From NCBI GenBank assembly GCA_016194305.1, contig JACQBW010000008.1:85684-149683 (forward strand): a DNA stretch of 64,000 bases, given 5' to 3'. This DNA comes from Nitrospirota bacterium (GTDB taxonomy: Bacteria > Nitrospirota > Nitrospiria > JACQBW01). This document shows positions 2,715-32,484 of the stretch, piece by piece (position 1 is the first letter of the stretch; every line of letters begins with the position of its first letter). The translations under genes and the position numbers were made by a program. The notes beneath the pieces are model-generated. The model was not told the origin of the DNA. It saw only the letters and a program-made list of their open reading frames with translations, and searched no databases.

Positions 2715-3446
2715 ATGAGGAAAGGAATAAGACTCCTGATATCACTGTTCTGCCTCGTTTCATTAGGCTATCTGGTCGGCAATGCCGCCGAAAGCTCAGA
2801 AATGGCTAATGCAAAGGAAATCAAAGAGTTGATTCAGCACTATATCGGAACTCGGCTTGCAATCTCTCCGCTTGAGATTGAGGTCCATCTGCTGGGAGAG
2901 TTGGGCGATACTCGAAAAGGAATTGCCGCGTCTCCTCATTTGGCCGTGCGGGAATCTAACGGGACCTCGCTATTAGGAAACGGAATGTTCTTACTCGTAT
3001 CGGAAGAATCTACCGAGAAGGTTCCGCCCCTCTGGGTAAACGTGAGAAGCGAATGGGTCCATCCGGCAGTTGTCGCGGCCAGATTTCTAAAGAAAAATCA
3101 GATCGTTAGCCTGGAGGACCTTACAATTCAAACAGTTCACTCTGATCAACCAGGTGATTACCTTTCACAAATAAGCGACCTGATCGGAAAAAGGGTTGTC
3201 CTGCAGGAACGGGCCGGAACCGTCATGACCCGCGATATGGTTCAGAATCCCCCTCTTTTTTATCAGGGTGAAAGGGTAACCCTTCTGGTTGAGACCGGCC
3301 ATCTAAAGATCATGGCTTCGGGAAAAGCACTGGAAGACGGGTATAAGGGAAAATCGGTTTCTGTATTAAATCTCGATTCGCACAGAACGGTTTTCGGAGA
3401 ACCGTTGGATGGAGCGACCGTTAAAGTGAGCCTCGGCCGGGACTAA
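2715..3446 (+). CDS. flgA: Flagellar P-ring assembly chaperone FlgA
   Basis: Signal peptide, SAF-like C-terminal region (GERVTLLVETGHLKIMASGKALEDGYKGKSVSVLN); position after flgG. Confidence 0.75.
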   Translation: MRKGIRLLISLFCLVSLGYLVGNAAESSEMANAKEIKELIQHYIGTRLAISPLEIEVHLLGELGDTRKGIAASPHLAVRESNGTSLLGNGMFLLVSEESTEKVPPLWVNVRSEWVHPAVVAARFLKKNQIVSLEDLTIQTVHSDQPGDYLSQISDLIGKRVVLQERAGTVMTRDMVQNPPLFYQGERVTLLVETGHLKIMASGKALEDGYKGKSVSVLNLDSHRTVFGEPLDGATVKVSLGRD

Positions 3447-3478: not shown

Positions 3479-4222
3479 ATGTTACACAATAGATTTTCGT
3501 CCCTCTTACATCTTGCCCCTATCCGAATAGTCCTCTTTCTGTTGGTTCTATACGTTGCCGGATGTGCTCCATATCCCTGGTCCAATTTAAGAGGGCAAAG
3601 CCCAAGGCCCCTTCATCCGGTCGTCGAAAAAACGGCGCAAACGTCCGGAGAAAAAACAGTCCTGATCCCACAAGAGAAGACAGAGGGGTCGTTATGGAAA
3701 GCAAGCCAGTCGAAAGCCTATCTTTTTCAGGATCCTAAAGCACGTCAGATTGGCGATATTGTAAGAGTTCAAATCATTGAAAATGCAACTGGATCAAAGA
3801 ACGCGGTCACCAAGACCTTGAAAACGTCTACAGCAACGGGAAGTACCGGAGCGACTCTGGGACTCCCTGGAAATACGACAAGCAATCTCGGAGTCACCGG
3901 CTCCTATGCCGATAACTTTGATGGCGAAGGTTCGACGACACGAAATCAGGCTTTAACGGCTGTGGTACCGGCAGAGGTGACCGATGTTTTGCCGAACGGA
4001 AATTTGGTGTTATACGGCCGAAGAGAAGTCGTTATTAATAGTGAAAAAACTTTAATCTCACTGACCGGGATGATTCGTCCGGAAGATATCGGTTCCCAAA
4101 ATACCATCTTATCGACCTCCATGTCAGACGCCAAAATTGAATATACCGGACGCGGTGTCATTTCCGACAAAAACCAGCCGGGGTGGTTGGTCCGCCTGAT
4201 GAACTGGTTCTGGCCGTTTTAA
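3479..4222 (+). CDS. flgH: Flagellar L-ring lipoprotein FlgH
   Basis: Lipobox (VAGC), FlgH-like middle region and C-terminal GWLVRLMNWFWPF. Confidence 0.85.
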   Translation: MLHNRFSSLLHLAPIRIVLFLLVLYVAGCAPYPWSNLRGQSPRPLHPVVEKTAQTSGEKTVLIPQEKTEGSLWKASQSKAYLFQDPKARQIGDIVRVQIIENATGSKNAVTKTLKTSTATGSTGATLGLPGNTTSNLGVTGSYADNFDGEGSTTRNQALTAVVPAEVTDVLPNGNLVLYGRREVVINSEKTLISLTGMIRPEDIGSQNTILSTSMSDAKIEYTGRGVISDKNQPGWLVRLMNWFWPF

Positions 4223-4246
4223 TTGTTTGTAATAGGAGAATGTTGC

Positions 4247-5500
4247 ATGAAGGCATGTATCATAGTACCCCCCTCTGAATTTTTAGATGATGATAAAGTA
4301 TTTCCGGCTTTGGGGCCCTGGTATATCAAGCGATATGTCGAAGAGAACTCCATTCACCAGGTCGATGTTTTGACAAATCCTCCGTTCGCCTATTTAGAAA
4401 GATATGATGTGGTTGGATTCAGCGTGACAACGCCTCAATATAATTATGTCGACAGGATTTTGAAGGATCTTCCAACAGGGATGACCACCGTATTGGGAGG
4501 TCCACATTGTCGTACTTATACGGTTGAACCGGGGACTTTCACACATGTCATTAGAGAAGATGGATGCAAACCTTTTCTGAATATCTTAAACGGGAATGAA
4601 CCTGGTAAAGAATCGGACGACAATGACCAGCTTCCCCACAGAGACATGACCTACCATGAATATAAATATGTTTTAGATGGCCGAAAATCGACTAATGTAA
4701 TTACCAGCAGAGGGTGTCCTCTATTGTGTTCTTTTTGCGAACATGCGAGGACGCCGGGTAGATTTAAAAGCAAAAAAGCGGTTGCGAAGGAAATTCAGGA
4801 ATGCAAGGATCTGGGGTTTGAAGGAGTGATGTTTTTTGATGACCTGTTCTGTTTGAATACCCAGCGGGTACGGGATATGTGCGAGGTCATCAAGCCACTC
4901 GATATCAAATTTAGATGTTTTGCACATGCTTTAAGTTTCAACAGGAAAATGGCAGAGCTCCTGGCAGGTGCGGGATGTGTTGAAATCGGTTTTGGCGCTG
5001 AGCATGCGTCGCAAAAAATATTGGATAACGTCAATAAAAAGACCAAAGCGATCCAGAACTATCAGTTGATCGAAAGAGCACATGAGTTTGGTCTCCGAGT
5101 CAAAGCATTCCTGATGATCGGACTCCCAGGAGAAGACCATGAGACCGTTAAAGAGTTGGAACAATTTGTCTTGAACTCCAATGTTGATGACTTCGACCTC
5201 TGTGTTTACTATCCTTTTGTCGGTACCGAGATTGCTGACTATCCTGAGAAGTTTGACATACAGATCAAAGATGATCAGAGTGGGGCCTATTATAAAGGAA
5301 AGCTGGGGTCCTCTTCGGTAATCGTTCGGACAGAAGCACTATCTTCTGAAGAGATCAAATATTGGCAAAAGAGGATCTATTCTCATAATAAGAGATGGAA
5401 AGGGGGAATGAAGTCCACGCTTGGAATTAAAATTGTGGATGAACCCTCTGCCGCAGATGTTTGCAGTTCCAGTAATGTGAATGGGTTCCCAGCAATTTAG
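4247..5500 (+). CDS. Radical SAM enzyme with an N-terminal B12-binding-like domain, inserted between flgH and flgI
   Basis: CPLLCSFCEH matches the CxxxCxxC radical-SAM cluster motif. The likely start is the ATG at 4247, preceded by an AGGAG ribosome-binding site; the ORF track begins at a TTG at 4223. The ORF directly abuts the flgH stop. Confidence 0.7.
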   Translation: MKACIIVPPSEFLDDDKVFPALGPWYIKRYVEENSIHQVDVLTNPPFAYLERYDVVGFSVTTPQYNYVDRILKDLPTGMTTVLGGPHCRTYTVEPGTFTHVIREDGCKPFLNILNGNEPGKESDDNDQLPHRDMTYHEYKYVLDGRKSTNVITSRGCPLLCSFCEHARTPGRFKSKKAVAKEIQECKDLGFEGVMFFDDLFCLNTQRVRDMCEVIKPLDIKFRCFAHALSFNRKMAELLAGAGCVEIGFGAEHASQKILDNVNKKTKAIQNYQLIERAHEFGLRVKAFLMIGLPGEDHETVKELEQFVLNSNVDDFDLCVYYPFVGTEIADYPEKFDIQIKDDQSGAYYKGKLGSSSVIVRTEALSSEEIKYWQKRIYSHNKRWKGGMKSTLGIKIVDEPSAADVCSSSNVNGFPAI

Positions 5501-5509
5501 AGGAGAAAA

Positions 5510-6643
5510 ATGGAAGAATGGTTAAATAAAATTGCAATGACAGGTAACGCGGTAATGGTGGTTTGTTTGTTAATTATTTCTATGTTTGCCTTTCCATCCG
5601 AGGCGGCCCGAATCAAGGACATTACGTCTATTGAGGGGGTACGCGAGAACTCCCTAATCGGATATGGTCTGGTCATCGGCCTGAATGGAACGGGAGATAA
5701 AGCGGGAACGGTATTTACCCTTCAGTCTCTTACCAATATGTTAAATAAAATGGGGCTTCTGGTCGACCCCTCCGCAGTGAAAGTTAAGAATGTCGCTGCG
5801 GTGGTCGTTACGGCCAAACTCCCGCCGTTTAATCGCCCGGGAAGCCATATCGATGTTTCGGTTTCATCGCTGGGCGATGCGAGTTCCCTTCAGGGCGGAA
5901 CGCTTCTAATGACGCCTTTGAAGGGGCCTGATCAGGAGACCTATGCTGTAGCTCAAGGACCAGTTTCAATCGGCGGATTTATCGGAGGCAAAGATGGCGA
6001 TACGGTTCAAAAAAATCATCCGACTGCGGGACGTGTTCCGGGAGGTGCCACCGTTGAAAAGGAGGTTAAACTGGAGTTGGGTGAAAAGGATTTTCTGATG
6101 CTGATGTTGAATCAGCAAGATTTTACAACCGCGATGAAGGTATCCCAAGTGATCAACGCCGGTTTACAGGACACTTTTGCTTCGGCTGTCGATTCCGACA
6201 CGATCCAGGTCAAAGTACCCGATTCCTATAAAGGGAAGGTGGTTGAACTCCTGGCCGCGATCGAAAGTCTGGATGTTCAGGTTGATGTGACAGCTAAAGT
6301 GGTTGTGAACGAAAGAACGGGGACCATTGTCATGGGAGATCAGGTTCGTATTTCGGATATTGGCATTTCCCATGGAAACCTGATCATTCGGGTTAAAACG
6401 GAGCTTCAAGTCTCGCAACCCTCACCTCTTGGTCCATCCAGTTCAAAGACGGTTGTGGTTCCAAAACAGAAGACCACTGTTACTGAAGAAGAAGCGAGAA
6501 TAACCGTGGTGAAAGGGGGAGCAACCATCGGCGAAGTGGTCAATGCGCTGAATGCAATCGGCGTGACTCCGAGGGATCTGATCGCCATTTTACAGGCCAT
6601 GAAGGCAGCAGGAGCCCTGCAGGCTGAATTGGAGATCTTGTAA
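5510..6643 (+). CDS. flgI: Flagellar P-ring protein FlgI
   Basis: Signal peptide plus conserved FlgI blocks (GYGLVIGLNGTGD, TPLKGPD, VVNALNAIGVTPRDLIAILQA). Confidence 0.9.
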   Translation: MEEWLNKIAMTGNAVMVVCLLIISMFAFPSEAARIKDITSIEGVRENSLIGYGLVIGLNGTGDKAGTVFTLQSLTNMLNKMGLLVDPSAVKVKNVAAVVVTAKLPPFNRPGSHIDVSVSSLGDASSLQGGTLLMTPLKGPDQETYAVAQGPVSIGGFIGGKDGDTVQKNHPTAGRVPGGATVEKEVKLELGEKDFLMLMLNQQDFTTAMKVSQVINAGLQDTFASAVDSDTIQVKVPDSYKGKVVELLAAIESLDVQVDVTAKVVVNERTGTIVMGDQVRISDIGISHGNLIIRVKTELQVSQPSPLGPSSSKTVVVPKQKTTVTEEEARITVVKGGATIGEVVNALNAIGVTPRDLIAILQAMKAAGALQAELEIL

Positions 6644-6936
6644 TGGATTTCATTGACGCTGTCTCCCATTCAACCGCTCAACCCGTTAGTCCTTCAACGA
6701 GTTCCAGAGAAGACAAAAAGGTTACCGAAGCTTCTCAAGGTTTCGAGGCCTATTTTATACAGCAGATGTTACAGGAGATGAGAAAAACGATACCGAAAAC
6801 AGAAAGACCGGGTTTTGGGAGTGCCATTTATGAGTCCATGATGGACCAGGCGCTGGCTCAAAATATGTCAGAGCATTCCGGAATAGGTTTAGCGAAGCAA
6901 ATTCGTGAGACGTTAGAAGCGAGAAACAAGAAGTAA
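6643..6936 (+). CDS. flgJ: FlgJ-like rod-binding protein (N-terminal rod-binding domain only; no muramidase domain)
   Basis: QGFEAYFIQQMLQEMRKT matches the FlgJ rod-binding domain. The product is 97 aa and overlaps the flgI stop (ATGA). Confidence 0.7.
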   Translation: MDFIDAVSHSTAQPVSPSTSSREDKKVTEASQGFEAYFIQQMLQEMRKTIPKTERPGFGSAIYESMMDQALAQNMSEHSGIGLAKQIRETLEARNKK

Positions 6937-10717: not shown

Positions 10718-10735
10718 TTGGCAAGGTATTTGCAT
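10718..10735 (+). promoter_or_regulatory. Sigma-54 promoter upstream of the glycosyltransferase genes
   Basis: cTTGGCAAggtatTTGCAT with exact -24/-12 spacing, about 70 nt upstream of the 10805 start. Confidence 0.65.
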
Positions 10736-10804: not shown

Positions 10805-13408
10805 ATGAAAATTAAATCCAGAAACACACTTTCTTGCACGTGCGGAAGTGGTAAGAAATTTAAAAAATGTTGCGGAGCAATCCAAAAGAATGTGACAGAA
10901 ACCGGGACTGACTTAGAGATATCTGAAAAATTCAAAAATGCAATCGTCTATCATCAAGCAGGAGAATTGGATAAAGCGGAAGCGTTTTACAGGGAAATAC
11001 TGGAGGCAGATCCGCGACAACCGGATGTCCTTTTTAATCTCGGAGGCATTTGTGAAGGAAAGGGCGAACTGGGTAAAGCAAAGTCCTTTTATGAAAAAGT
11101 CCTTGAGAATAGACCTGACTACTATACCGTATATAACAATTTGGGGGCTGTTTATTACAAGGAAGAAAGTTATTTAGAAGCGCGGAGTTATTACGAAAAG
11201 GCCCTGTCGTTTAAACCTGATTTTGCCGAAGCTTGGAACAATCTCGGTATGGTATTTAAATCAGAGGGAAAGTTCAAGGAGGCCGAAGAATTCATTAAGA
11301 AGGCGATCTTTCTCAAGCCTGACTATGCCGATGCGTATAACAATTTGGGTGCAACCTATTTAGGACACGGAGATAGGAGCAAGAAGGAAACAGCGATAGC
11401 CTGTTTAGAAAAGGCAATAAAGATAAATCCCCGTCACGCCGGAGCGTACAATAATATTGGAAATATTTTAAGATTTGATGAAAGGCTCGAAGAGGCAGAA
11501 TCTTATTATTTAAAGGCAATCACAATTGACCCTAAGTTTCCCGATGCCTACTCCAATTTGGGAAATATTTACGAGCTTCAGGGAAGGGCTGAGGAGGCGG
11601 TTGAGAAATATAGAAAGACACTTGAACTGGCACCGAAACATGTCATTGCTCAGAGCAATCTTCTTCTTGCTCTAAACTATTCAGAAACTAGCGTTCCCAG
11701 TGCAGTCTACTCTGAACACCTTCTTTTCGAAAAGAATTTCGGGGAACAATTTAAGTCGGAAACGAAGCCTTATCTGAACGATCTTTCTCCGGATCGGAAA
11801 TTAAAAATCGGTTATATTTCTCCCGATTTCAGGACTCATTCGGTGGCGTACTTCATCGAGCCGGTCCTGGCCAATCACGACAGTCAGAAATTTGAGATTA
11901 TCGGTTATTCCAACAGTCAGGCATGGGATCAAATGACCAGGCAACTTCATTCTTATGTTGACAAATGGCGCAATATTTCGGGCATTCCGGTCCATATCGT
12001 AGACGAAATGATCAGAATGGATCAGATTGATATCTTAATTGACTTGAGCGGACATACGGCAGGAAACCGACTGCTTGTTTTTGCCCGGAAACCCGCCCCC
12101 GTTCAGGTAACATGGCTTGGCTATCCCAATACCACTGGTTTAAGGACGATGGATTATCGAATTACCGATCGTTTTGCAGATCCAGTCGGCGTGGCGGAAC
12201 AATTTCATACAGAACAACTCATCAGGCTCCCTAAATCATTTTCATGTTATCGACCGCCAGACGAAGGGCTAGAAGTGGAAGATACTCCGGCCATAGAAAA
12301 TGGATTTATTACATTTGGTTCATTTAATAATTTTTCCAAAGTTACACTGAGAGTTATTCAGTTGTGGGCTAAGGTTTTAAGATCTGTTCCTGATTCTCGC
12401 CTGATTTTGAAAACCGGTGGATTAAATGAAAAAAGTCTAAGAGACAGGGTCTACGATCAATTTGCATCTATGGGAGTCTCAGCCAATAGACTTGAGTTAT
12501 TGGGAAGAGACGCCTCACGGGAGGAACATTTTAGACAATATCGCCGTCTGGATATCGGATTGGATCCTTTTCCCTATAACGGGACGACGACAATTTGCGA
12601 GTCACTTTGGATGGGAGTGCCGGTGGTGACTCTTGAAGGACAAACGCATGCCGGCCGTGTGGGGGTGAGTCTTATGAATACCCTGGAGCTGACCGAATTA
12701 ATCGCCCGATCGGAAAACGAATATGTGGATATTTGTGTGCGTCTTGCAAATGACCTGGTGCAATTAAGTCAGTTACGGGCGGGGATGCGCTCGAGGATGA
12801 AGGCTTCTCCTTTAATGAATGAGAAGGAGTTTACTCAATACCTGGAAGACGCATACAGAAATATCTGGAAAGATTATGTGCGAAGACAGGGCCTGATGTC
12901 TGAGCGTTCTGAAATGAAAAATGTGGCTGATCCTGAAGTCAATGTCAGGATAGACGAGGCTCAAAATCTCCTGAAAGAAGGACGTTTAGACCAGGCAGAA
13001 ATTCTTTATCGGGAAATCTTGACGAACCACTCAAAGAATCCAACCGTGCTCCATGACCTGGGAATTGTTGCGTTCCATAAAGGACAATTGGCCCGGGCCG
13101 CGGATTTCTTTATCAAAGCATTGGCATTTAAGCCCGATTATGCCACCGCTTATAATAATCTTGGTGCGGTCTGTGATGAAATGGGGCGCCAGGAAGATGC
13201 CAAGGCGTGTTATGAGATGTCGCTGGTCTTGGTGCCGAATTATGCCGAAGCCCACCACAATCTGGGAGTACTGTACAAGAAACAGGGAATCATCAATATG
13301 GCGATGGACTTTTTCCAGAAGGCTCTGGATTTAAATCCCGAATATCTTGAAGCACGCAAGAATATAGAAGAGTTAAAGAGGATGACATCGGAGCCCTCAT
13401 CCGTTTGA
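10805..13408 (+). CDS. TPR-repeat protein with an N-terminal SEC-C metal-binding motif and an O-GlcNAc-transferase-like (GT41-type) C-terminal domain; candidate flagellin O-glycosyltransferase
   Basis: CTCGSGKKFKKCCG matches the SEC-C motif. There are at least 8 TPR units, and the C-terminal half resembles a GT41 catalytic region (GYISPDFRTHSVAYF..., GSFNNFSKVT...). Confidence 0.7.
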   Translation: MKIKSRNTLSCTCGSGKKFKKCCGAIQKNVTETGTDLEISEKFKNAIVYHQAGELDKAEAFYREILEADPRQPDVLFNLGGICEGKGELGKAKSFYEKVLENRPDYYTVYNNLGAVYYKEESYLEARSYYEKALSFKPDFAEAWNNLGMVFKSEGKFKEAEEFIKKAIFLKPDYADAYNNLGATYLGHGDRSKKETAIACLEKAIKINPRHAGAYNNIGNILRFDERLEEAESYYLKAITIDPKFPDAYSNLGNIYELQGRAEEAVEKYRKTLELAPKHVIAQSNLLLALNYSETSVPSAVYSEHLLFEKNFGEQFKSETKPYLNDLSPDRKLKIGYISPDFRTHSVAYFIEPVLANHDSQKFEIIGYSNSQAWDQMTRQLHSYVDKWRNISGIPVHIVDEMIRMDQIDILIDLSGHTAGNRLLVFARKPAPVQVTWLGYPNTTGLRTMDYRITDRFADPVGVAEQFHTEQLIRLPKSFSCYRPPDEGLEVEDTPAIENGFITFGSFNNFSKVTLRVIQLWAKVLRSVPDSRLILKTGGLNEKSLRDRVYDQFASMGVSANRLELLGRDASREEHFRQYRRLDIGLDPFPYNGTTTICESLWMGVPVVTLEGQTHAGRVGVSLMNTLELTELIARSENEYVDICVRLANDLVQLSQLRAGMRSRMKASPLMNEKEFTQYLEDAYRNIWKDYVRRQGLMSERSEMKNVADPEVNVRIDEAQNLLKEGRLDQAEILYREILTNHSKNPTVLHDLGIVAFHKGQLARAADFFIKALAFKPDYATAYNNLGAVCDEMGRQEDAKACYEMSLVLVPNYAEAHHNLGVLYKKQGIINMAMDFFQKALDLNPEYLEARKNIEELKRMTSEPSSV

Positions 13409-13426: not shown

Positions 13427-16400
13427 ATGGAAAGATGGCAATTAAGGACCCCAGTCGCTTTTATGATATTCAATCGACCTGATACGACCCAATTCGTGTT
13501 CGAGGAGATTCGTAAATCAAAACCACCCAAGCTGTTAGTCATTGCTGACGGTCCACGTCCCGGGAAACCAGACGAAGCAGAGAAATGTCGTGCGGCAAGA
13601 GCAATTATTCAGCGCATCGACTGGAAATGCGAAGTATTAACAAACTACTCTGATATCAATTTAGGTTGCAAGAGACGCGTCTCAACCGGTTTGGATTGGG
13701 TTTTTGAATTGGTAGAGGAGGCGATAGTACTGGAAGATGATTGTCTCCCTGAACCCAGCTTCTTTCGATTTTGTGAAGATCTGCTCAAAAAATATCGTCA
13801 TGATGAACGGATTGCCCAAATCAGCGGGGATAATTTTCAATTTGGAGAGAACGGGACCGAATACAGTTATTATTTCTCGAGAATTAATCATTTGTGGGGA
13901 TGGGCCTCTTGGCGAAGAGCCTGGAAAAAGCATGATGTATCGATGTCGAAATGGCCTGAAGTAAAGAGCAAGACAGGTTTAATTGACTGGCTTGGAAATC
14001 GGGAACTGGCCAATTTCTGGGAAGGGGCATTTGATAGCGCTTTCCTGGGAAAGATCGATACCTGGGATTTTCAATGGGTTTTCTCTTCCTGGTTGCATAA
14101 CATGTTAACGATTCTCCCCAATCAGAATTTAATTTCAAATATCGGTTTCAGGGAGGACGCCACCCACACCAAAGGTCAGAGCCTGTTTGCGAACATGAAG
14201 ACAGCTCCAGTTCTTTTTCCTCTCAAGCACCCTCCGGAGATTATTCGAAATGTTGCAGCGGATTCTTTTACCGAAAGGATGATGTTTCTCCCGAAAGCAC
14301 CGGTTCAAATGGAGTCGAATCCAAAATCGGATTCTCCTGTGGTCTGTAAAGTCTGTTCATCTAGATCAAGATTCCTAAAAAATGCATCCATGTTAAAGGT
14401 TCACTTGGTAGATTATTTTAAATGTGAAAACTGCGGATTTATTCAGACAGAAGAGCCATTTTGGTTAAATGAGGCTTATTCCAGTGCAATTACGAGCAGT
14501 GATACGGGTCTGGTGAGAAGAAATATTGAGCTTTCGAAAATGTCGAAATTGATTTTATCTAATTGTTTTGAGAAAAACGCCCAATTTGTCGATTATGGCG
14601 GAGGATACGGTCTTTTTGTCCGTTTGATGAGGGACTATGGTTTTGATTTCTACTGGATTGACCAACATTGTCCAAATCTTTTTGCCAAGAACTTTGAAGC
14701 AGATTGCCAAAACGGGAAGCGGTACGAGGTATTGACGGCATTTGAAGTTTTTGAACATCTGGTTAATCCCATGGATGAGATAGAAAAAATGCTGAAACTT
14801 TCAAATACCATTTTCTTTAGCACAGAACTGATTCCCTCTCATCATCCGAAACCGGGAGAATGGTGGTATTTTGGGCTTGAGCATGGCCAGCATATCTCTT
14901 TCTATACTCTGAGAACTTTGGATGCGATTGCCAGAAAATTTAATCTGAACCTCTATTCTAATGGGACTTCGCTACACATCTTAACGGACAAAAATCTTAA
15001 AGGTCCCTTGGAGTTTTCCGAGGGGATCTGGAAATCATTGCAAAGTCATGATATTGAGTGGTATGGACCTCACCGGATGGACAAGATTGTATTGGGCGTA
15101 TCCGGAGGAAACGAAACTCTCCAAAGTGTTCAAGCCATAATTCATTCCGCACGAACCTTTCTTCAGAATGGACACCTCGATGAGGCAGAAAAAATCTACA
15201 GAGACATTCTGAATGTGCATTCTCAAAACAGCGAAGTTTTGCATGATCTTGGAATTATTGCATTTCAAAAAGGCAAACTTGTTTCGGCATCCGATTACTT
15301 TCTTAAGGCCTTAAATATAAAACCCGATTTTGCAATAGCCCATAATAATCTGGGGGTTGTCTTGAATGAAATGGGGAAGAAGGAAGAGGCTAAAATCTGT
15401 TATGAAGTGGCTATTTCTTTAAAACCGGATTACGCAGAAGCTTATTTTAACCGAGGCATGATTTCCAGAGATCAGGGCCGTCATGACGAAGCGATGATCT
15501 CATTTCAAAAGGCAGTCGGGTTTAAGTCGGACTATGTTGAAGCACTCAAAGAACTGGAAGAATTAAAAAAGAAAGTTCAAAGTCCGAGATTGCTAAAACC
15601 AGTGCCGGCGATAAGTCCGGGCATGGATCCGGGTTTGAAAAAAAGAATGGCTTTTGTGGATTTGGCCTTTCATCAAAGAACAAAAAGCACGCTGGAATTG
15701 ATTGAGGTTTTCCAACGCCATTTCCAGGTCGACATATACTGGGACAGCGGAAATCTTGATTTTCAGCAGATTGCCAGACAAAGCTATGATACGGTCGTTT
15801 TTTTTCAAAAGATCTATGGGATGAGGAAATTAGATTCGCTTAACGCTAAAAATATTATTTTTATCCCGATGTATGATGATGTGATGGGAATCACAGATGC
15901 ATACTGGAGGCAGTTTGGTCATGTTCAGTTCCTTAGTTTCTCAAGAACGCTTCATGAGAAACTTCTTCACCTGGGGTTAAGATCTCGGCATATTCAATAT
16001 CATGTTCCATCCCCAAAGCTTCCAAGTCCAGAGCCGTCCTGTAAGGGCCTCTCCGGGTTTTTCTGGCAAAGGACCAACTATATCCGGTGGAGTACGATCA
16101 AGATCCTGATTCAGAATGTTTCGATTGAAAAATTTCACCTCCACTCCGCGGTCGATCCCCCGAACCATGTTTTTGAAAAACCTTCAGATGAAGATATCAA
16201 AAAATACAGCATCACCATCAGTGATTGGTTTCCCGGAAAGGAGGAGTATTTGACTCTCGTTGCCTCCGCCAAACTTTTCTTTGCCCCAAGGCCCTTCGAG
16301 GGAATAGGGATGTCTTTCCTGGAGGCTATGGCCATGGGAAAATGTGTGATTGCCCCGGATCTACCCACGATGAATGAATACATTCAGGATGGCGAAAATG

Positions 16401-16549
16401 GTCTTTTGTATGACCCGAAAAATCCCGTTCCCCTTGATTTTAGGCAGGCTGATAATATAGGAATGAAGGCGAGAGTTTCGGCTGAAGAAGGGTATCGTAC
16501 CTGGAAAGAGGCCGAAAAAGGTTTAATTCAATTTATAACGGATCCGTAA
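13427..16549 (+). CDS. 1040-aa multidomain protein: GnT-I-like GT-A domain, zinc-ribbon plus class-I SAM C-methyltransferase, TPR repeats, and a GT-B (GT4-like) domain; candidate flagellin glycan assembly enzyme
   Basis: GT-A DxD-like motif LEDDCLP and WGWASWRRAW; zinc ribbon CKVCSS...CENCGF followed by VDYGGGYGLF (SAM binding); TPR block; C-terminal GT4 motif EGIGMSFLEAMAMGKCVIAPD...ENGLLYD. Confidence 0.7.
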   Translation: MERWQLRTPVAFMIFNRPDTTQFVFEEIRKSKPPKLLVIADGPRPGKPDEAEKCRAARAIIQRIDWKCEVLTNYSDINLGCKRRVSTGLDWVFELVEEAIVLEDDCLPEPSFFRFCEDLLKKYRHDERIAQISGDNFQFGENGTEYSYYFSRINHLWGWASWRRAWKKHDVSMSKWPEVKSKTGLIDWLGNRELANFWEGAFDSAFLGKIDTWDFQWVFSSWLHNMLTILPNQNLISNIGFREDATHTKGQSLFANMKTAPVLFPLKHPPEIIRNVAADSFTERMMFLPKAPVQMESNPKSDSPVVCKVCSSRSRFLKNASMLKVHLVDYFKCENCGFIQTEEPFWLNEAYSSAITSSDTGLVRRNIELSKMSKLILSNCFEKNAQFVDYGGGYGLFVRLMRDYGFDFYWIDQHCPNLFAKNFEADCQNGKRYEVLTAFEVFEHLVNPMDEIEKMLKLSNTIFFSTELIPSHHPKPGEWWYFGLEHGQHISFYTLRTLDAIARKFNLNLYSNGTSLHILTDKNLKGPLEFSEGIWKSLQSHDIEWYGPHRMDKIVLGVSGGNETLQSVQAIIHSARTFLQNGHLDEAEKIYRDILNVHSQNSEVLHDLGIIAFQKGKLVSASDYFLKALNIKPDFAIAHNNLGVVLNEMGKKEEAKICYEVAISLKPDYAEAYFNRGMISRDQGRHDEAMISFQKAVGFKSDYVEALKELEELKKKVQSPRLLKPVPAISPGMDPGLKKRMAFVDLAFHQRTKSTLELIEVFQRHFQVDIYWDSGNLDFQQIARQSYDTVVFFQKIYGMRKLDSLNAKNIIFIPMYDDVMGITDAYWRQFGHVQFLSFSRTLHEKLLHLGLRSRHIQYHVPSPKLPSPEPSCKGLSGFFWQRTNYIRWSTIKILIQNVSIEKFHLHSAVDPPNHVFEKPSDEDIKKYSITISDWFPGKEEYLTLVASAKLFFAPRPFEGIGMSFLEAMAMGKCVIAPDLPTMNEYIQDGENGLLYDPKNPVPLDFRQADNIGMKARVSAEEGYRTWKEAEKGLIQFITDP

Positions 16550-16792: not shown

Positions 16793-17740
16793 ATGGCAGA
16801 TATTTCATTAACCGCTGGTATGCGGGCGTCGGTTCTTTCGTTAGAGACAACGTCTTCGTTATTTGATACGACCCAATTACGGTTATCTACCGGACGAGCA
16901 GTCAACTCGGCATTGGACGATCCGATCAAATATTTTTCGGCTCAGAATAATAATTTTACGGCAAGTGGTTTAAACAATCTTAAATCAAGCATGAACGAAG
17001 CGTTACAGGTGGTGTCGGCTGCCAACAATGGTATCACCGCTGTGACCTCCTTAATCAAAAACGCAATCGCCATTGCTCAACAGGCTCAAGCGGCGTCTGC
17101 GACGGATTATACAACTCAGGCCACGCTCCTGACCCAATATATCGGGATTTTGAGCCAGATCAACTTCGCCGGTGCGGATTCGAAATACGGCGGGAAAGAT
17201 TTGATCAATAATGGAACGGCATATAGTTCCTCTACCGCGACAGCTTCAGACAGTGTGACGGTGACTTTCAGCACAACCAACACCAACTCCGCCATTACCA
17301 TTTCAGGTGTCGATTCCACGATTGTAGGTCTTGGCCTATCAGTTGGAGGTTTTACGCTTGCAACGGGGAATGAAACGACCGGAACGGGTGCGGTGACCAC
17401 AGGGGCAACCCTATCCTGGACCACAACCGCCAGCTCAAACAATAGCTGGGCGACTGCGGCGAATATATCGACAGATATTACGAAATTGAACAGCGCGTTA
17501 ACCACCCTTCAGACAACCGCAAAGACCCTATCGACCAGCAACGCGGTGATTCAGGCCAGAATCGATTTTACCGCCAATATGGTCAGTACCTTACAGCAAG
17601 GGTCTGATAAGCTGACACTGGCGGATATGAATCAGGAAGGAGCCAACATGTTGTCCCTGCAGACACAGCAGGCATTGGCTACAAACTCGATGAGATTGGC
17701 CTCTCAAGCCTCCCAGAGCGTCTTGAGATTATTCTCATAA
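16793..17740 (+). CDS. fliC: Flagellin (alpha-proteobacterial-type, with a Ser/Thr-rich central region)
   Basis: RLSTGRAVNSALDDP in the N-terminal D0/D1 segment and a conserved C-terminal LSLQTQQALATNSMRLASQASQSVL. The central region is S/T-rich. Confidence 0.85.
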   Translation: MADISLTAGMRASVLSLETTSSLFDTTQLRLSTGRAVNSALDDPIKYFSAQNNNFTASGLNNLKSSMNEALQVVSAANNGITAVTSLIKNAIAIAQQAQAASATDYTTQATLLTQYIGILSQINFAGADSKYGGKDLINNGTAYSSSTATASDSVTVTFSTTNTNSAITISGVDSTIVGLGLSVGGFTLATGNETTGTGAVTTGATLSWTTTASSNNSWATAANISTDITKLNSALTTLQTTAKTLSTSNAVIQARIDFTANMVSTLQQGSDKLTLADMNQEGANMLSLQTQQALATNSMRLASQASQSVLRLFS

Positions 17741-18182: not shown

Positions 18183-18575
18183 ATGCCACTTAAGGTTACC
18201 TTAAAGCCGAAGGAACGTCTTTTCATCAATGGCGCGGTTATTTTCAATAATGAAGCGAACCGGATTAGCCTGATTGTCGTTAACGACATACCGATTTTAA
18301 GAGAAAAAGATATTTTAACCGAAGAGAGTGCGAATTCCCCCTGCAAACGGATCTATCTTTCCGTTCAGTTGATGTATATGGATAAGGAACGGCTGGCCGA
18401 ATATCAGAAGAAATATTGGAGGCTGGTCGGGGAGGTCATCAAGGCGGCACCAAGCACCACAAAAATGATTCATAAAATTAGCGAGCAGATTTTAATAGGG
18501 CAATTTTATAAAGCTTTAAAACTTTCTCATAAATTAGTTCATTACGAAATGGAGTTAATCAATGCCGGTAAATAA
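18183..18575 (+). CDS. flbT: Flagellin synthesis regulator FlbT
   Basis: N-terminal MPLKVTLKPKERLFINGAVIFNN...NDIPILREKDIL resembles Caulobacter FlbT. Confidence 0.7.
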   Translation: MPLKVTLKPKERLFINGAVIFNNEANRISLIVVNDIPILREKDILTEESANSPCKRIYLSVQLMYMDKERLAEYQKKYWRLVGEVIKAAPSTTKMIHKISEQILIGQFYKALKLSHKLVHYEMELINAGK

Positions 18576-18948
18576 TCCCTTCAGTGCCTATCAAGAGGTG
18601 GCGAAAAAGACCCTAGATGGTCCCGCTCTTGAAGCCTATGTATTGAATAGAGCCGCTCAGCTCCTGATTGAGTGTAAAAATCAGTGGAATGAGTCCGGAC
18701 ATCAAGAACGGCTTGATAAGGCGCTCGGATATAACCAGAAGTTATGGACCTTTTTTCAGGTGGAGCTCGCCAATCCGGAACATTCTCTTCCGAAAAAGAT
18801 ACGTGAAGATATCTTAAGCCTCTCCATTTTTATTGATAAAAGAATTTATGAAGTCATAACAGAACCGGATCCTGGCAAACTGGAGGTGATGATCAATATT
18901 AACCGAAATATTGCCAACGGCCTTCAGGGGAACGCGATCGGGTCCTGA
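18562..18948 (+). CDS. flaF: Flagellin synthesis regulator FlaF
   Basis: About 128 aa; pattern like FlaF (…KLWTFFQVELANPEHSLPKKIREDILSLSIFIDKRI); overlaps flbT. Confidence 0.65.
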   Translation: MPVNNPFSAYQEVAKKTLDGPALEAYVLNRAAQLLIECKNQWNESGHQERLDKALGYNQKLWTFFQVELANPEHSLPKKIREDILSLSIFIDKRIYEVITEPDPGKLEVMININRNIANGLQGNAIGS

Positions 18949-19157: not shown

Positions 19158-19724
19158 ATGACTAACTATCCTAAAGACAAATTCAGAGTTCTTATCGTGG
19201 ATGATGAAGAGGGCCCCCGGAGGGCGATTGAAGCGGCATTGTACCGTGAAAAAGATCTTGAAATTAGAACGGCCCGAAGCGGGGAGGAGGCACTCCACAG
19301 TTTTGATGAGGGTGCATTCGATCTTGTTCTGACTGATATCCGGATGCCGCAAATGGATGGGATAGATCTGCTTCGAAGGATCCACGAACGTTCTCCCGAT
19401 ACCCTGGTAATCTTGATTACCGGATATGGAACACTTAATTCCGCCATTGATGCGATTCGGGCGGGAGCGTATGATTACCTGACCAAACCGTTTAAAGTGG
19501 AGGAGCTCTGTATCGTTGTCGACAGAGCCATTGAAAAAATCAAACTTCTGCGGGAGAACGGTAGATTGCTCGGAGAGCTCACCGCGCTTTTTGAAAAAAT
19601 AAAAAAGAATATCGTGGAGACGGAATCCGCCGAAAAGGGGGTCCGAAACCTGGAGTTGTTACAGGATGTCAGGCGTCAGCTTTCACAAATTTATGTAAGG
19701 AACGGTGGAAATGGAAAAGGATAA
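19158..19724 (+). CDS. CheY-like single-domain response regulator with a C-terminal coiled-coil tail
   Basis: LIVDDEEGPRR...LVLTDIRMPQMDG...YLTKPF: the receiver-domain Asp and Lys residues are present. Confidence 0.8.
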   Translation: MTNYPKDKFRVLIVDDEEGPRRAIEAALYREKDLEIRTARSGEEALHSFDEGAFDLVLTDIRMPQMDGIDLLRRIHERSPDTLVILITGYGTLNSAIDAIRAGAYDYLTKPFKVEELCIVVDRAIEKIKLLRENGRLLGELTALFEKIKKNIVETESAEKGVRNLELLQDVRRQLSQIYVRNGGNGKG

Positions 19725-20283
19725 CCGCAGCTATCATCGTATTCCAACGGAATGTCCCGCACTTTACCGGATCGTCGACCCTGCCAAGAAAGAAGACGCC
19801 AAAGGGAAATGGGAGAGACTGGCCCATCTTTCACCGATCTCTGCCTTTGAAGGAATGGAGAGCAGCCACCGTCAGACAGAACATGTGGACCCCTTTGTTC
19901 TGGAGCTTTTTCTCCGTCTCGACTGGCGAATGAATTACATGATTAAGATGATGACCCAGAAAGAAGATCTGGAACTCTTTCCCTGCCGGGCGGTCATTGT
20001 CGATATCTCCGCGTCAGGAATGAAACTTTACGGTACTGAAAGTCCTCCGAATGGAGCGCGTATGGAATTTCAATTTGTCTTGCCAATTATCCCTTTCAGG
20101 GAACTATTTTTGGTCGGTAAAGTGATCAGATCGGTCCCGAAGGAGCTTGCAAGCAATCCCGATTTCAAGTATGAAATTGGAATTGAATTTGAGGGGTTAA
20201 AAGAGATGGACCGGGAACATCTGATTCATTATGTCGTCAAAAGAGAACTTCAGTTGCGGCAAGGACGTGAAAAAATCCGCTAG
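19705..20283 (+). CDS. PilZ-domain c-di-GMP-binding protein
   Basis: RLDWR (RxxxR) 30 aa before DISASGMKL (DxSxxG); overlaps the response-regulator gene by 20 nt. Confidence 0.6.
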   Translation: MEMEKDNRSYHRIPTECPALYRIVDPAKKEDAKGKWERLAHLSPISAFEGMESSHRQTEHVDPFVLELFLRLDWRMNYMIKMMTQKEDLELFPCRAVIVDISASGMKLYGTESPPNGARMEFQFVLPIIPFRELFLVGKVIRSVPKELASNPDFKYEIGIEFEGLKEMDREHLIHYVVKRELQLRQGREKIR

Positions 20284-30136: not shown

Positions 30137-32136
30137 TTTTTGGCCTCGATTTTGGAAGATGTTTTTTCAATGGATAATGTCTTGATTATCGGATCTGCCG
30201 CGGTTTTTCCGAGTTCGGCCAGGAGCTCTTTTTCTTTGTTCGTTTGACCCATAGCGGCATAGGACTTGGCAATGCGATATCGGATCCAATCAGACAATCG
30301 GGAATCTCCCTTTTCCCGGAGTCCGTTTTCATAAGCGGTAATCGCTTTCTTGTACTGTTTTAACTGAAAATAATTGTCGCCCAGTTTTTGATAAAGAACC
30401 GGCTTGAGATGAGGCTCTTTCTGAAGAAGCTGTTGATAAATTGGGATCGCTTCGCGGAACTGCTGATTTTTGTCATACGTGGAGGCCAGCTTCAGACTCA
30501 TATTTCTCGCGTTCGGTGCGGCGGCATAAAGAGAAAGCCACAGTTTGAATTTCTCAATCGCCAGATCGTATTTCTTGGCTTTCAGCAAGATATTTCCGAG
30601 CGCTTCGATGACATCCGGCTTGCGCCGGCTCTCCGGATATTTTTTCAGAAAAAACTCCAGCTTTTTCCGGGCGGTCACGTATTCGCCGGTTTCAGTCAGG
30701 GTATTGGCGTAAAGGTAAAGTGCTTCATCCATTTGAGGAAGCGTAGTACTGTTCATCGAGGTTTCAAGGATGGGGAGAGCTTGGCTGTAAAATCCGTTTC
30801 GAATCAGACTGGAGGCGATTTTAAATCCGGTAGGGCCGAAAATTAGTTTTCCGGAGAAGATGTCCGCGGAACCGAAATAAATCTCGACGACCCCCAAATC
30901 ATTTCCGGCCTGATACTCTTTGTCGACCGCTTCGACCGCAGATTTGTTCAGCGCAATGAGGACATCTCTCTGAAGCGGGGAGCCTTCGAGATACGGATAG
31001 AGCTTCTTATTAATTTCGAATGTCATGAGCGGTTTGCCGAGACGCAAGAACTGTTCCCCTTCCTGAAAGACAAATTGCTGTACCGTAATGGAGGGAGGGG
31101 GTTCCTGAAGAAGGCTGTCAATCATATCGCCGATGACTTTGGCTCCGTCGCGAGGCACTTTAACCTGTTTCGGATCGCCTTCGGTACACTTTTGAATGAT
31201 AAAGGACTCCAGCCCATGTTTTCTCGATTTTTTCAGACACTCCTGGGTTTTGATTTCTTCGATTTCATTAATGAGATCGGTGATTTTCGTACCCAGAGGT
31301 CCGGGATAAAGACTTTGAATGATATCGACCATGTTGGTCGATGCTTTTCCATCTTCTTCGAGATAAAAGATATTGACCAGTCTCGATAAGACCATCAACG
31401 TCAGCGGATCCCTCGGAAAGATGTTATAGAATTTCAGGAAGATCTCTTTGGCCTCTTTCCTCCGGCCGGTTTGATAGGCCGAATCGCCGAAATGATAGAG
31501 GGTGAGAGGCTGTTGAGATAAATACGTTTCGTACGATTTCAAACCGGTACTGTAAATCATGTAGGCATGTGCAAAATCATTGGAGTAATAAAGCGTTTCC
31601 GCAAGTCCCAGGACCGCCAGCGGCCGATCCTCGGGTGCAAGAGAGGACGGGGAGATCTTGCTGTAGGCATCCAGGGCCTCTTTCCATCTTTCCCACACCT
31701 GGTAAGTATGAGCGATACCGAGAAGCGCTTTGGAAGCATATGGAGAGTCCGGAAACTTCAAGAGAATTCTTTTATAGCTTGCGATCGATTCATATTGAAG
31801 TCCGAGCCGAGAGGAGATGGCACCGATCTTCCAGAGTCCCCGCGCACTGTTTACAGACTCAGGAAAAGCGATGTTGGCCTCCCGAAACGAATCAATTGCC
31901 ATCTGAAGAAAATCCGTATCTCCATCACCGGCAAGTTTTAAATAAATATCCCCCTTCAAAAAAAGGGCGACCTCTCTTTCAGTCTCTTTGGAAGCCGTTT
32001 CTAGAAGCTTTTTGGTTTCCTGAAGCGCGCTTTCGTATTCTCCCTTTTCATAAGGGTCCAGAGCGGGTTTCAACCATCGTTTCAACTGCTCTTTCCCTTT
32101 TTCCGGGATGAGCGGGAGATCATCCTCTTTCGCCAT
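30133..32136 (-). CDS. TPR-repeat protein, possibly secreted (first gene of the TPR-HK-EBP operon)
   Basis: Multiple TPR units. The frame stays open upstream and encodes a signal-peptide-like segment; see the finding on the missing canonical start. Confidence 0.6.
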   Translation of the reverse strand: MAKEDDLPLIPEKGKEQLKRWLKPALDPYEKGEYESALQETKKLLETASKETEREVALFLKGDIYLKLAGDGDTDFLQMAIDSFREANIAFPESVNSARGLWKIGAISSRLGLQYESIASYKRILLKFPDSPYASKALLGIAHTYQVWERWKEALDAYSKISPSSLAPEDRPLAVLGLAETLYYSNDFAHAYMIYSTGLKSYETYLSQQPLTLYHFGDSAYQTGRRKEAKEIFLKFYNIFPRDPLTLMVLSRLVNIFYLEEDGKASTNMVDIIQSLYPGPLGTKITDLINEIEEIKTQECLKKSRKHGLESFIIQKCTEGDPKQVKVPRDGAKVIGDMIDSLLQEPPPSITVQQFVFQEGEQFLRLGKPLMTFEINKKLYPYLEGSPLQRDVLIALNKSAVEAVDKEYQAGNDLGVVEIYFGSADIFSGKLIFGPTGFKIASSLIRNGFYSQALPILETSMNSTTLPQMDEALYLYANTLTETGEYVTARKKLEFFLKKYPESRRKPDVIEALGNILLKAKKYDLAIEKFKLWLSLYAAAPNARNMSLKLASTYDKNQQFREAIPIYQQLLQKEPHLKPVLYQKLGDNYFQLKQYKKAITAYENGLREKGDSRLSDWIRYRIAKSYAAMGQTNKEKELLAELGKTAADPIIKTLSIEKTSSKIEAKK

Positions 32137-32484
32137 GATTTTAGCAGGAAGTGTGTTGTTCGATTCAGAAGCCGATGCATTAACGGCAGCGGGAGCCGAT
32201 TCGACCGGGGGAAGCGTGCTGGCCAGAGCGATAGAGAAGATAAAAGCAGGAACGAATAAAATAGCGACACCTCGAACAAGAAAATGGATAAGGAGATTTC
32301 ACAAACGATCTCAATCGGGGTATAAGCAATTAGTATGCCAGCGACTGTTTATGCGGCTTTAAGGGGAAAAACGGGGCGAAAGGCAGCTATTTTCGCAAAA
32401 AGAGGGGATTATTCTCTAAAATTTTTTTTTAATCAAGATCGACAGTCAAATGTTTGACGATCCCATTTTAGACTCTTGAAGAAG

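Follow-up and report, generated by a model that had tools for sequence, protein, structure and literature searches.

A radical-SAM gene inserted between flgH and flgI in Nitrospirota: a candidate sugar-tailoring enzyme for flagellin glycosylation

Introduction

Why should an enzyme of the radical S-adenosylmethionine (SAM) superfamily be encoded between flgH and flgI, the L-ring and P-ring genes of a flagellar operon? The question is raised by a 64,000-nt stretch of Nitrospirota DNA (contig JACQBW010000008.1, positions 85,684–149,683 of the forward strand; hereafter the window), in which a radical-SAM gene separates these two genes. An earlier note on this DNA found the gene surprising in such an operon and proposed that it performs a dedicated radical step in flagellum biogenesis. 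Our analysis of its distribution, predicted structure and relatives indicates that the gene is not part of the core flagellar set and is a recent, lineage-specific insertion. The reading that we favour, and to which we give an even chance, is that the gene encodes a horizontally acquired, class-B-type radical-SAM enzyme of sugar tailoring, recruited to a flagellin glycosylation module in the same gene cluster. Only two sister species, both from an uncultivated group, show the arrangement, and all that is said below about function is inferred.

A lineage-specific insertion at the flgH–flgI junction

The radical-SAM gene is an open reading frame (ORF) on the + strand (4247–5500; ATG at 4247, TAG at 5498–5500) that encodes 417 aa plus a stop codon, and a ribosome-binding site (RBS), AGGAGA, was read from the sequence 7 nt 5' of its ATG (4234–4239, +). 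It is spaced 24 nt from the flgH stop (4222) and 9 nt from the flgI ATG (5510); the ORF between the two genes, its tight spacing and its own RBS were thus as the earlier note had described them. Both flanking genes scored above the Pfam cutoffs, flgH (L-ring; 3479–4222, +) with 188 bits to PF02107 and flgI (P-ring; 5510–6643, +) with 463.5 bits to PF02119. A protein identical to the radical-SAM protein of the window is deposited as "radical SAM protein" from the Nitrospirae/Nitrospirota metagenome-assembled genome (MAG) GCA_016178565.1.

We located flgH, flgI and radical-SAM homologs in 80 metagenomic loci encoding FlgI relatives. Wherever flgH and flgI were both on the contig they were direct neighbours, spaced by −24 to +219 nt, and none of the 80 loci carried the radical-SAM gene; the surprise expressed in the earlier note was therefore justified. 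In loci L093 and L094, whose FlgI is 87% identical to that of the window, flgH and flgI are 41 nt apart without a radical-SAM gene. The only other carriers were L088 and L092, which represent one sister species and hold the gene in the same slot, with a protein 89% identical to that of the window; the gene order of L092 matches the window from flgF to the big glycosyltransferase gene. FlgI identities supported the grouping ((window, L092), L093/L094), L095, for which the simplest history would be a single insertion event in an ancestor shared by both carrier species. The insert is clean, lying between the flgH stop and the flgI start region, and the locus represents a cleanly dated insertion of an accessory gene into an otherwise invariant flgH–flgI junction.

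Comparison of the radical-SAM genes of the window and the sister species revealed a nonsynonymous divergence (dN) of 0.065 with saturated synonymous divergence (dS), indicating strong purifying selection. Amino-acid identity between the two carriers was 89% for the radical-SAM protein, compared with 81% for FlgH, 87% for FlgI, 72% for FlgA, 80% for FlgK and 77% for FlgL. A dedicated or general radical step in flagellum biogenesis, as first proposed, is not supported by these loci, since the gene is missing from all 80, including the relative with the 87%-identical FlgI, and its family shows no flagellar co-occurrence. The synteny check suggested in the earlier note thus came near the outcome named there as a refutation, revealing a lineage-specific insertion with no family-wide flagellar co-occurrence, but not a random one: because the slot is kept in the sister species under purifying selection, and because the flagellar cluster also holds its likely partner genes, the gene is not random junk.

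A scan of representative genomes yielded a best match of 44% identity and no close relative, and hence was of no use for synteny within Nitrospirota; one of the 80 representative-genome loci lay near flagellar genes. When 17 flagellar proteins of the window were compared with all homolog loci by tblastn, flagellar genes were detected in L042 only, and the use of the L042 flagellar proteins as queries revealed no further flagellum-adjacent loci. In L042 (569–8938, Magnetococcales HCHbin5), a 35%-identical homolog lies on the opposite strand about 1 kb from fliM-fliN-fliO-fliP and a flgE encoding 722 aa, a proximity that is possibly coincidental. A rubrerythrin gene and a repeated unannotated ORF stand between the radical-SAM homolog and the flagellar genes of this locus.

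Enzyme class and predicted structure

The protein matched the Pfam Radical_SAM model (PF04055; 73.4 bits, cutoff 29.5) from residue 151 to 307 and at profile positions 1–165 of 166, so that the PF04055 part of the classification suggested earlier was confirmed. Its CxxxCxxC motif for the [4Fe-4S] cluster, read in translation as GCPLLCSFCEH (C157, C161 and C164; 4715–4738, +) and correctly picked out in the earlier note as CPLLCSFCEH, is unchanged in an alignment of 30 homolog sequences (A1), which served as the basis of the invariance counts and as AlphaFold input. Also invariant in A1 were a GxGxE stretch (G248, G250, E252) and, in the N-terminal domain, S59, T62 and G84-G85, which fall where predicted strands 3 and 4 end. 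It is at these strand ends that the SxL and GG fingerprints sit in cobalamin-binding domains. This N-terminal Rossmann-type domain (residues 1 to ~120; 4247–4606, +) was assigned from a below-cutoff match to the B12-binding model PF02310 and from the predicted structure, and PF02310 was found at E ≤ 0.01 in 27 of the 30 family members, with a best E of 4e-12.

The AlphaFold model of the protein (pLDDT 86.5, pTM 0.83) was disordered only in the last 31 residues and showed a beta-alpha-beta pattern in the N-terminal domain. By this model, the protein adopts the partial TIM-barrel fold of the radical-SAM superfamily within a class-B-like architecture, in which a B12-binding-type Rossmann domain precedes the [4Fe-4S]/SAM barrel, with a small domain at the C-terminus. 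Foldseek comparison with the PDB returned AprD4 (TMq 0.72–0.74), MgmA, CysS, TsrM, TokK, OxsB and MiaB, all with a probability of 1.0, and with full-length coverage of the model for AprD4, MgmA, CysS, TsrM, TokK and OxsB; the Rossmann-type domain of the model aligned to those of TsrM, TokK, CysS and MgmA, and also to that of the cobalamin-free AprD4. In the PDB sequence search AprD4 (6fd2) was the top match (E 1.9e-26), covering core residues 126–331 only, and the N-terminal domain matched 4q37 alone, which is counted among the B12 radical-SAM structures in a 2026 review (PMC12931638). According to the same review, AprD4 binds no cobalamin, despite its Rossmann-related domain and its place in the cluster of B12 radical-SAM enzymes.

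Comparison with NCBIfam models revealed no equivalog match: PhpK (TIGR04479) scored 110.6 bits against a cutoff of 600 and HpnJ (TIGR03471) 93.5 against 577.6, both with matches confined to the radical-SAM core, the AprD4 family model (NF033070) scored 68.4 against 500, and the models for the ladderane B12 radical-SAM enzyme, ApyD and BchE were also below their cutoffs. Because every family-specific model fell far below its cutoff, the protein is assigned to an uncharacterised subfamily. We also considered a maturase of ribosomally synthesised and post-translationally modified peptides (RiPPs), prompted by weak ApyD and rSAM_ocin matches, and rejected it, as no precursor-like ORF was found and the neighbourhood is glycan-dominated.

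Within A1, a C-terminal tail (residues 387–417; 5405–5497, +; pLDDT < 50) is present only in the flagellar-operon copies, namely the window protein and P0001 of L092. This tail, although predicted to be disordered, holds a conserved DVCSSSNVNG stretch. Sliding-window identity between the window and L092 gave no sign of a hidden DNA-level element in the 3' tail, which does not stand out.

Relatives of the radical-SAM protein in glycan cassettes

The protein search revealed hundreds of radical-SAM homologs, among which we inspected nine non-flagellar loci of the close clade (49–65% identity). Locus L001 is phage-like (intein, TnpB, fn3) and contains two methyltransferase (MT) genes and a gene for a glycosyltransferase (GT) of family GT1, a gene content also found on the shorter contig L002. 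Phage-like L003 (terminase, SSB, HNH) carries GT1, a methyltransferase and an 829-aa MT/GT1/GT9 protein. In L089, likewise phage-like (DNA polymerase B), a Methyltransf_21 (MT21) gene overlaps the start of the homolog, accompanied by a 600-aa methyltransferase and a pyruvyl-transferase-like gene, and the phage-like loci L091 and L253 (NrdD) contain MT24, GT2/DUF4214 and MT23, and MT24 and MT11, respectively. L004 is a polysaccharide cluster (ABC-2 transporter, DegT, epimerases, Asn synthase) with MT21 just upstream of the homolog; L090 lies beside a type I-E CRISPR-Cas locus and contains two more radical-SAM genes and glycosyltransferase-like genes; and L254, which is not phage-like, has DegT and an acetyltransferase directly upstream and MT24, MT11, MT23 and GT2/GT9 downstream. 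SAM methyltransferases were located near the homolog in all nine loci, and six of them also contained glycosyltransferases or nucleotide-sugar enzymes (DegT aminotransferase, acetyltransferase, epimerase).

In 48 loci, every ORF no farther than 6 kb from the homolog was included in a clustering, which revealed GT1 (20 loci), GT2 (18), SAM methyltransferases (13), SPASM radical-SAM proteins (11), DegT (9) and tetratricopeptide repeat (TPR)-GT41 proteins (8) as recurrent neighbours. ABC transporters, hexapeptide acetyltransferases, GFO/IDH/MocA oxidoreductases, nucleotidyl-transferases and PMT_2 proteins recurred as well. Because the recurrent neighbours are glycan-related and flagellar genes occurred in one locus only, the family is likely to be one of glycan or sugar-nucleotide tailoring and not a flagellar one. 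Judging from these neighbourhoods, the subfamily travels in variable glycan cassettes of phages, candidate-phyla bacteria, Magnetococcales and others. The INPHARED database of cultured phages contained no match to the radical-SAM protein (tblastn, E ≤ 1e-10), and relatives in IMG/VR were at most 37% identical; a possible phage origin is thus suggested solely by the uncultivated contigs L001, L003, L089, L091 and L253.

Several of these loci contained further features. In L090 (2202–13397), on a 140-kb contig, the 51%-identical homolog stands in a row of three radical-SAM genes beside an operon of Cse1, Cas7, Cas5 and Cas6e. L001 (1–1669; 9491–10537), with a 65%-identical homolog, contains a LAGLIDADG intein in a large gene and, as the second gene downstream of radical-SAM, one that resembles IS605 OrfB/TnpB. 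In several close-clade loci, an unannotated protein of ~275 aa adjoins the radical-SAM gene (L089:8149–8982, L091:3152–3982 and L177:8953–9624); it is 48% identical between L089 and L091, matches nothing in Pfam, lacks an equivalent in the window, and may be a partner in phage cassettes. A link through FkbM-type methyltransferases was rejected, as the extra Methyltransf_21 gene of L092 is not homologous to the Methyltransf_21 genes beside the radical-SAM gene in L089 and L004.

Putative glycosylation genes beside the flagellin gene

Two large genes sit between flgL and the flagellin gene of the window. The first (10805–13408, +) encodes an 867-aa TPR and GT41 protein (Pfam Glyco_transf_41, 211 bits, and many TPR matches), a putative flagellin glycosyltransferase; FlmG, an enzyme that combines TPR and glycosyltransferase parts, is an established one (PMC7591256). 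The second (13427–16549, +) encodes a 1040-aa fusion in which Pfam analysis placed an unannotated N-terminal region (1 to ~290), Methyltransf_23 (379–511), TPR (570–700) and GT1/GT4 (930–1000); its N-terminal ~300 aa had no sequence match in Pfam, NCBIfam or the PDB. The flagellin (16793–17740, +; 315 aa), recognised by Pfam Flagellin_N and NCBIfam flagellin subfamilies, has a central region rich in Ser/Thr by composition and is the likely glycan acceptor.

Homologs of both large proteins occur beside radical-SAM genes elsewhere. In L011 (Lentisphaeria), the radical-SAM homolog is followed directly by separate genes whose products are 53% identical to residues 1–282 and 47% identical to residues 307–525 of the 1040-aa protein, and then by GT1; by this alignment, the 1040-aa protein of the window looks like a fusion of the L011 cassette. 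A methyltransferase of L001 is 46% identical to residues 307–512 of the same protein. Full-length homologs of the TPR-GT41 protein flank the radical-SAM gene in the Magnetococcales loci L009 and L024, and a related cluster was found in eight loci. Within the window, the radical-SAM gene is linked in one cluster with the genes for the TPR-GT41 protein, the 1040-aa protein and flagellin, and this arrangement is kept in L092. The radical-SAM, TPR-GT41 and 1040-aa genes are the three lowest in GC content of the flagellar cluster (GC 0.425–0.437, compared with 0.48–0.51 in the core genes; GC at third codon positions 0.43–0.44), which is consistent with a shared foreign origin.

Proposed role and alternatives

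As a mechanism we tentatively propose that a sugar-tailoring radical-SAM enzyme, possibly derived from a phage, was domesticated into the sigma-54 rod/ring operon and uses radical chemistry to modify the flagellin glycan, for example by adding a C-methyl branch. The ancestor of the two sister Nitrospirota species would have gained the gene horizontally, its nearest relatives lying on phage-like contigs, and the gene, cleanly inserted between flgH and flgI, would share with the rod/ring genes a transcript that starts at the sigma-54 promoter of flgF. In the cytoplasm, the [4Fe-4S] cluster of the enzyme would reductively cleave SAM to yield a 5'-deoxyadenosyl radical, which would abstract hydrogen from an unactivated carbon of a nucleotide-sugar or glycan unit. 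The outcome might be, as the more probable of two, a sugar C-methylated via methylcobalamin, to which the PF02310-type N-terminal domain points, or else an AprD4-like deoxygenation/dehydration or rearrangement, to which the closest solved relative points. Attachment of the modified sugar to the Ser/Thr-rich flagellin would then fall to the two TPR-glycosyltransferases whose genes separate flgL from flagellin. Tailoring of a sugar or glycan of some kind we consider likely. For the flagellin glycan as the target of the enzyme we see the chances as balanced, and methylation specifically we regard as doubtful. The flagellin glycan was also one of the candidates named in the earlier note, and it is the option favoured by the glycosyltransferases, methyltransferases and aminotransferases around family members and by the L011 link to the 1040-aa protein.

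Several observations weigh against the role in flagellin glycosylation proposed here. The class-B likeness suggested in the earlier note held for the Rossmann-type domain and for the 27 of 30 members matching PF02310, but the window protein itself scored 22.7 bits against a cutoff of 32.1 (residues 20–92; nt 4304–4522). AprD4, the closest solved relative, is a non-cobalamin enzyme, and methylation is hence not secured. The gene neighbourhoods of the family are variable, so that the substrate may differ among its members, and L011, the main contiguous support for the cassette link, encodes a radical-SAM protein only 37% identical to that of the window. Within the cluster, the radical-SAM gene is ~5 kb and six genes away from its proposed partner genes. 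Within the 64 kb we detected neither nucleotide-sugar biosynthesis genes, pseudaminic or legionaminic acid genes among them, nor cobalamin genes. Glycosylation of the flagellin is itself only predicted, from gene content.

Part of this evidence would suit an enzyme with the same target and another chemistry, a cobalamin-independent, AprD4-like vicinal-diol dehydration, epimerisation or rearrangement of a sugar for the flagellin glycan, with no methylase involved. AprD4 is the best match of the window protein in the PDB by sequence and over the full-length fold (rmsd 4.1–4.9), it acts on a sugar with a Rossmann-related domain and no cobalamin (PMC12931638), and the cassettes are already rich in SAM-dependent methyltransferases, which may cover methylation; the subthreshold PF02310 score points the same way. 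However, the AprD4 family model was far from its cutoff, the sequence match to AprD4 excludes the N-terminal domain, this domain matches 4q37 and, in nearly all family members, PF02310, and the top NCBIfam matches include true B12 methylases such as PhpK; we therefore consider such chemistry unlikely. A little less probable still is a target in a surface glycan outside the flagellum (lipopolysaccharide (LPS), capsule or exopolysaccharide (EPS)), the gene having merely landed in the flgH–flgI gap, with the operon serving its expression. The generic association of the family with polysaccharide clusters, such as L004 with its ABC-2 transporter, DegT and epimerases, and L254, would fit this, as would a recent, lineage-specific insertion and the lack of family-wide flagellar co-occurrence, but homologs of cassette partners lie within the same flagellar cluster between flgL and flagellin, the position is fixed in both species despite saturated dS, and sigma-54 flagellar timing would be odd for an LPS or EPS enzyme.

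Modification of a structural protein encoded nearby, by methylation or cross-linking of the FlgH lipoprotein, FlgI or a rod protein, appears improbable. The earlier note had named a ring protein as a possible target, and we found no support for this beyond the position of the gene between flgH and flgI. Protein or peptide methylation is known for some radical-SAM enzymes of class B, and MgmA is among the fold matches and ApyD and RiPP methylases among the weak NCBIfam matches; but homologs occur in phages, candidate-phyla bacteria and archaea without flagellar genes, every other flgH–flgI pair lacks the gene, the neighbourhood signal is overwhelmingly glycan-related, and FlgH and FlgI are exported by Sec to the periplasm or outer membrane, whereas the radical-SAM enzyme has no signal peptide. 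Least probable of all is a neutral or decaying passenger without present function. Its recent acquisition and a GC content below that of its neighbours would suit a passenger, but the reading frame of the gene is unbroken, its catalytic motif is invariant, it has a good RBS and is tightly spaced in the operon, and its divergence from the sister copy (89% identity, low dN at saturated dS) shows it to be more conserved than the flanking flagellar genes.

If recruitment to flagellin glycosylation is correct, radical C–H chemistry would be added to protein glycosylation, and flagellin glycosylation would have its first radical-SAM step; the pathways described so far rely on nucleotide-sugar enzymes, on SAM methyltransferases of the ordinary kind and on transferases of the Maf or TPR type. 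The filament would carry an unusual sugar, for example a branched or deoxy sugar, with a bearing on phage adsorption and surface properties. It would also give a first functional handle on a widespread B12-type radical-SAM subfamily that large phages, candidate-phyla bacteria and Magnetococcales carry in glycan cassettes. The recurrence of this subfamily in such cassettes, on phage-like contigs and across many uncultivated lineages, with no characterised member, makes it a concrete target for enzyme discovery.

Comparison with known systems

The class-B methyltransferases TsrM, TokK, CysS, MgmA and PhpK share with the window protein the domain order of a B12-binding-type domain followed by a CxxxCxxC barrel, and PhpK, HpnJ and other B12 radical-SAM families were its top NCBIfam matches, all far below the cutoffs. 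The window protein is shorter (417 aa compared with ~450–680 aa), and cobalamin binding and methyl transfer, properties of those enzymes, are for it only a possibility. A sugar C-methylase of the cobalamin-dependent radical-SAM class is GenK. We know of no flagellar operon that encodes TsrM, TokK, CysS, MgmA, PhpK or GenK.

AprD4, the radical-SAM 1,2-diol dehydratase of apramycin biosynthesis (6fd2), has a three-part architecture with an N-terminal Rossmann-related domain in common with the window protein, and acts on a sugar. The two proteins are ~17% identical, with no detectable sequence match between their N-terminal domains; moreover, AprD4 binds no cobalamin (PMC12931638), whereas the N-terminal domain of the window family matches PF02310 in 27 of 30 members, and AprD4 belongs to an antibiotic pathway, whereas the window gene lies in a flagellar locus.

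Like the FlmG system of Caulobacter (PMC7591256), the window has TPR-bearing glycosyltransferases, here two large ones encoded next to a Ser/Thr-rich flagellin, with FlbT and FlaF downstream. In architecture, the modules of the window match the logic of FlmG, in which the TPR domain binds flagellin and the glycosyltransferase domain adds sugar. In the literature searched, no radical-SAM enzyme was described in flagellin glycosylation or in flagellar gene clusters. Uncharacterised radical-SAM genes have been reported among methyltransferases and glycosyltransferases in the capsule and surface-glycan loci of Campylobacter (PMC8743553, PMC6321876). Those of C. fetus are of the MoaA/NifB/PqqE/SkfB type (PMC6321876) and not of the B12-binding-domain type found in the window family, and the C. 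jejuni gene is annotated just as a radical SAM metalloprotein (PMC8743553); unlike the window gene, these Campylobacter genes are located outside rod/ring operons.

Flagellar cluster and promoters of the window

The flagellar genes of the window are arranged in the order flgF, flgG, flgA, flgH, radical-SAM, flgI, flgJ, flgM, flgN, flgK, flgL, TPR-GT41, 1040-aa protein and flagellin, followed by an unannotated gene, flbT, flaF and genes for a response regulator and a PilZ protein. Beyond the PilZ gene, fliJ, fliI, fliH, fliG and fliF and two genes for sigma-54 activators are on the minus strand. Pfam matches above cutoff identified flgF (986–1717, +) and flgG (1872–2654, +), both by Flg_bbr_C/LlgE_F_G_D1, and flgA (2715–3446, +) by ChapFlgA. 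FlgJ (6643–6936; 97 aa) consists of the rod-binding domain alone, without a muramidase domain; therefore, the peptidoglycan-cutting activity for rod insertion must be encoded elsewhere.

A sigma-54 promoter-like site, TGGCACATCAATTGC (794–808, +), is located ~180 nt 5' of flgF with zero mismatches to TGGCAC-N5-TTGC; it is the sole perfect match in the 64 kb, and its promoter function is predicted. Because this sole perfect site lies upstream of flgF and no convincing terminator was found between flgF and flgJ, co-transcription is plausible, and transcripts that start at the flgF promoter probably span the radical-SAM gene as well as the rod/ring genes. The co-transcription stated in the earlier note is thus backed by the perfect consensus and by the lack of a terminator between flgF and flgJ, but as a prediction and not as the fact given there. 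A second sigma-54-like site, TGGCAAGGTATTTGC (10719–10733, +; one mismatch), lies 72 nt 5' of the TPR-GT41 gene and is a consensus match only; sites with at most two mismatches were barely commoner in the window than in shuffled sequence. Another one-mismatch site (32326–32340, −) lies ~190 nt 5' of a gene for a 667-aa TPR protein that ends at 32136.

Downstream of flagellin, an unannotated ORF of 126 aa is followed by the genes for FlbT (18183–18575) and FlaF (18562–18948). These regulators of flagellin synthesis are best known from Alphaproteobacteria; here they occur in a Nitrospirota MAG. Signalling genes are also part of the cluster: after flaF, a response regulator gene is overlapped by that of the PilZ-domain protein (19158–20283 for the pair), and a GGDEF protein is encoded just 5' of the sigma-54 flgF promoter (2–664). 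In the sister locus L092, HDOD/HD, motA/motB and che genes precede the GGDEF gene.

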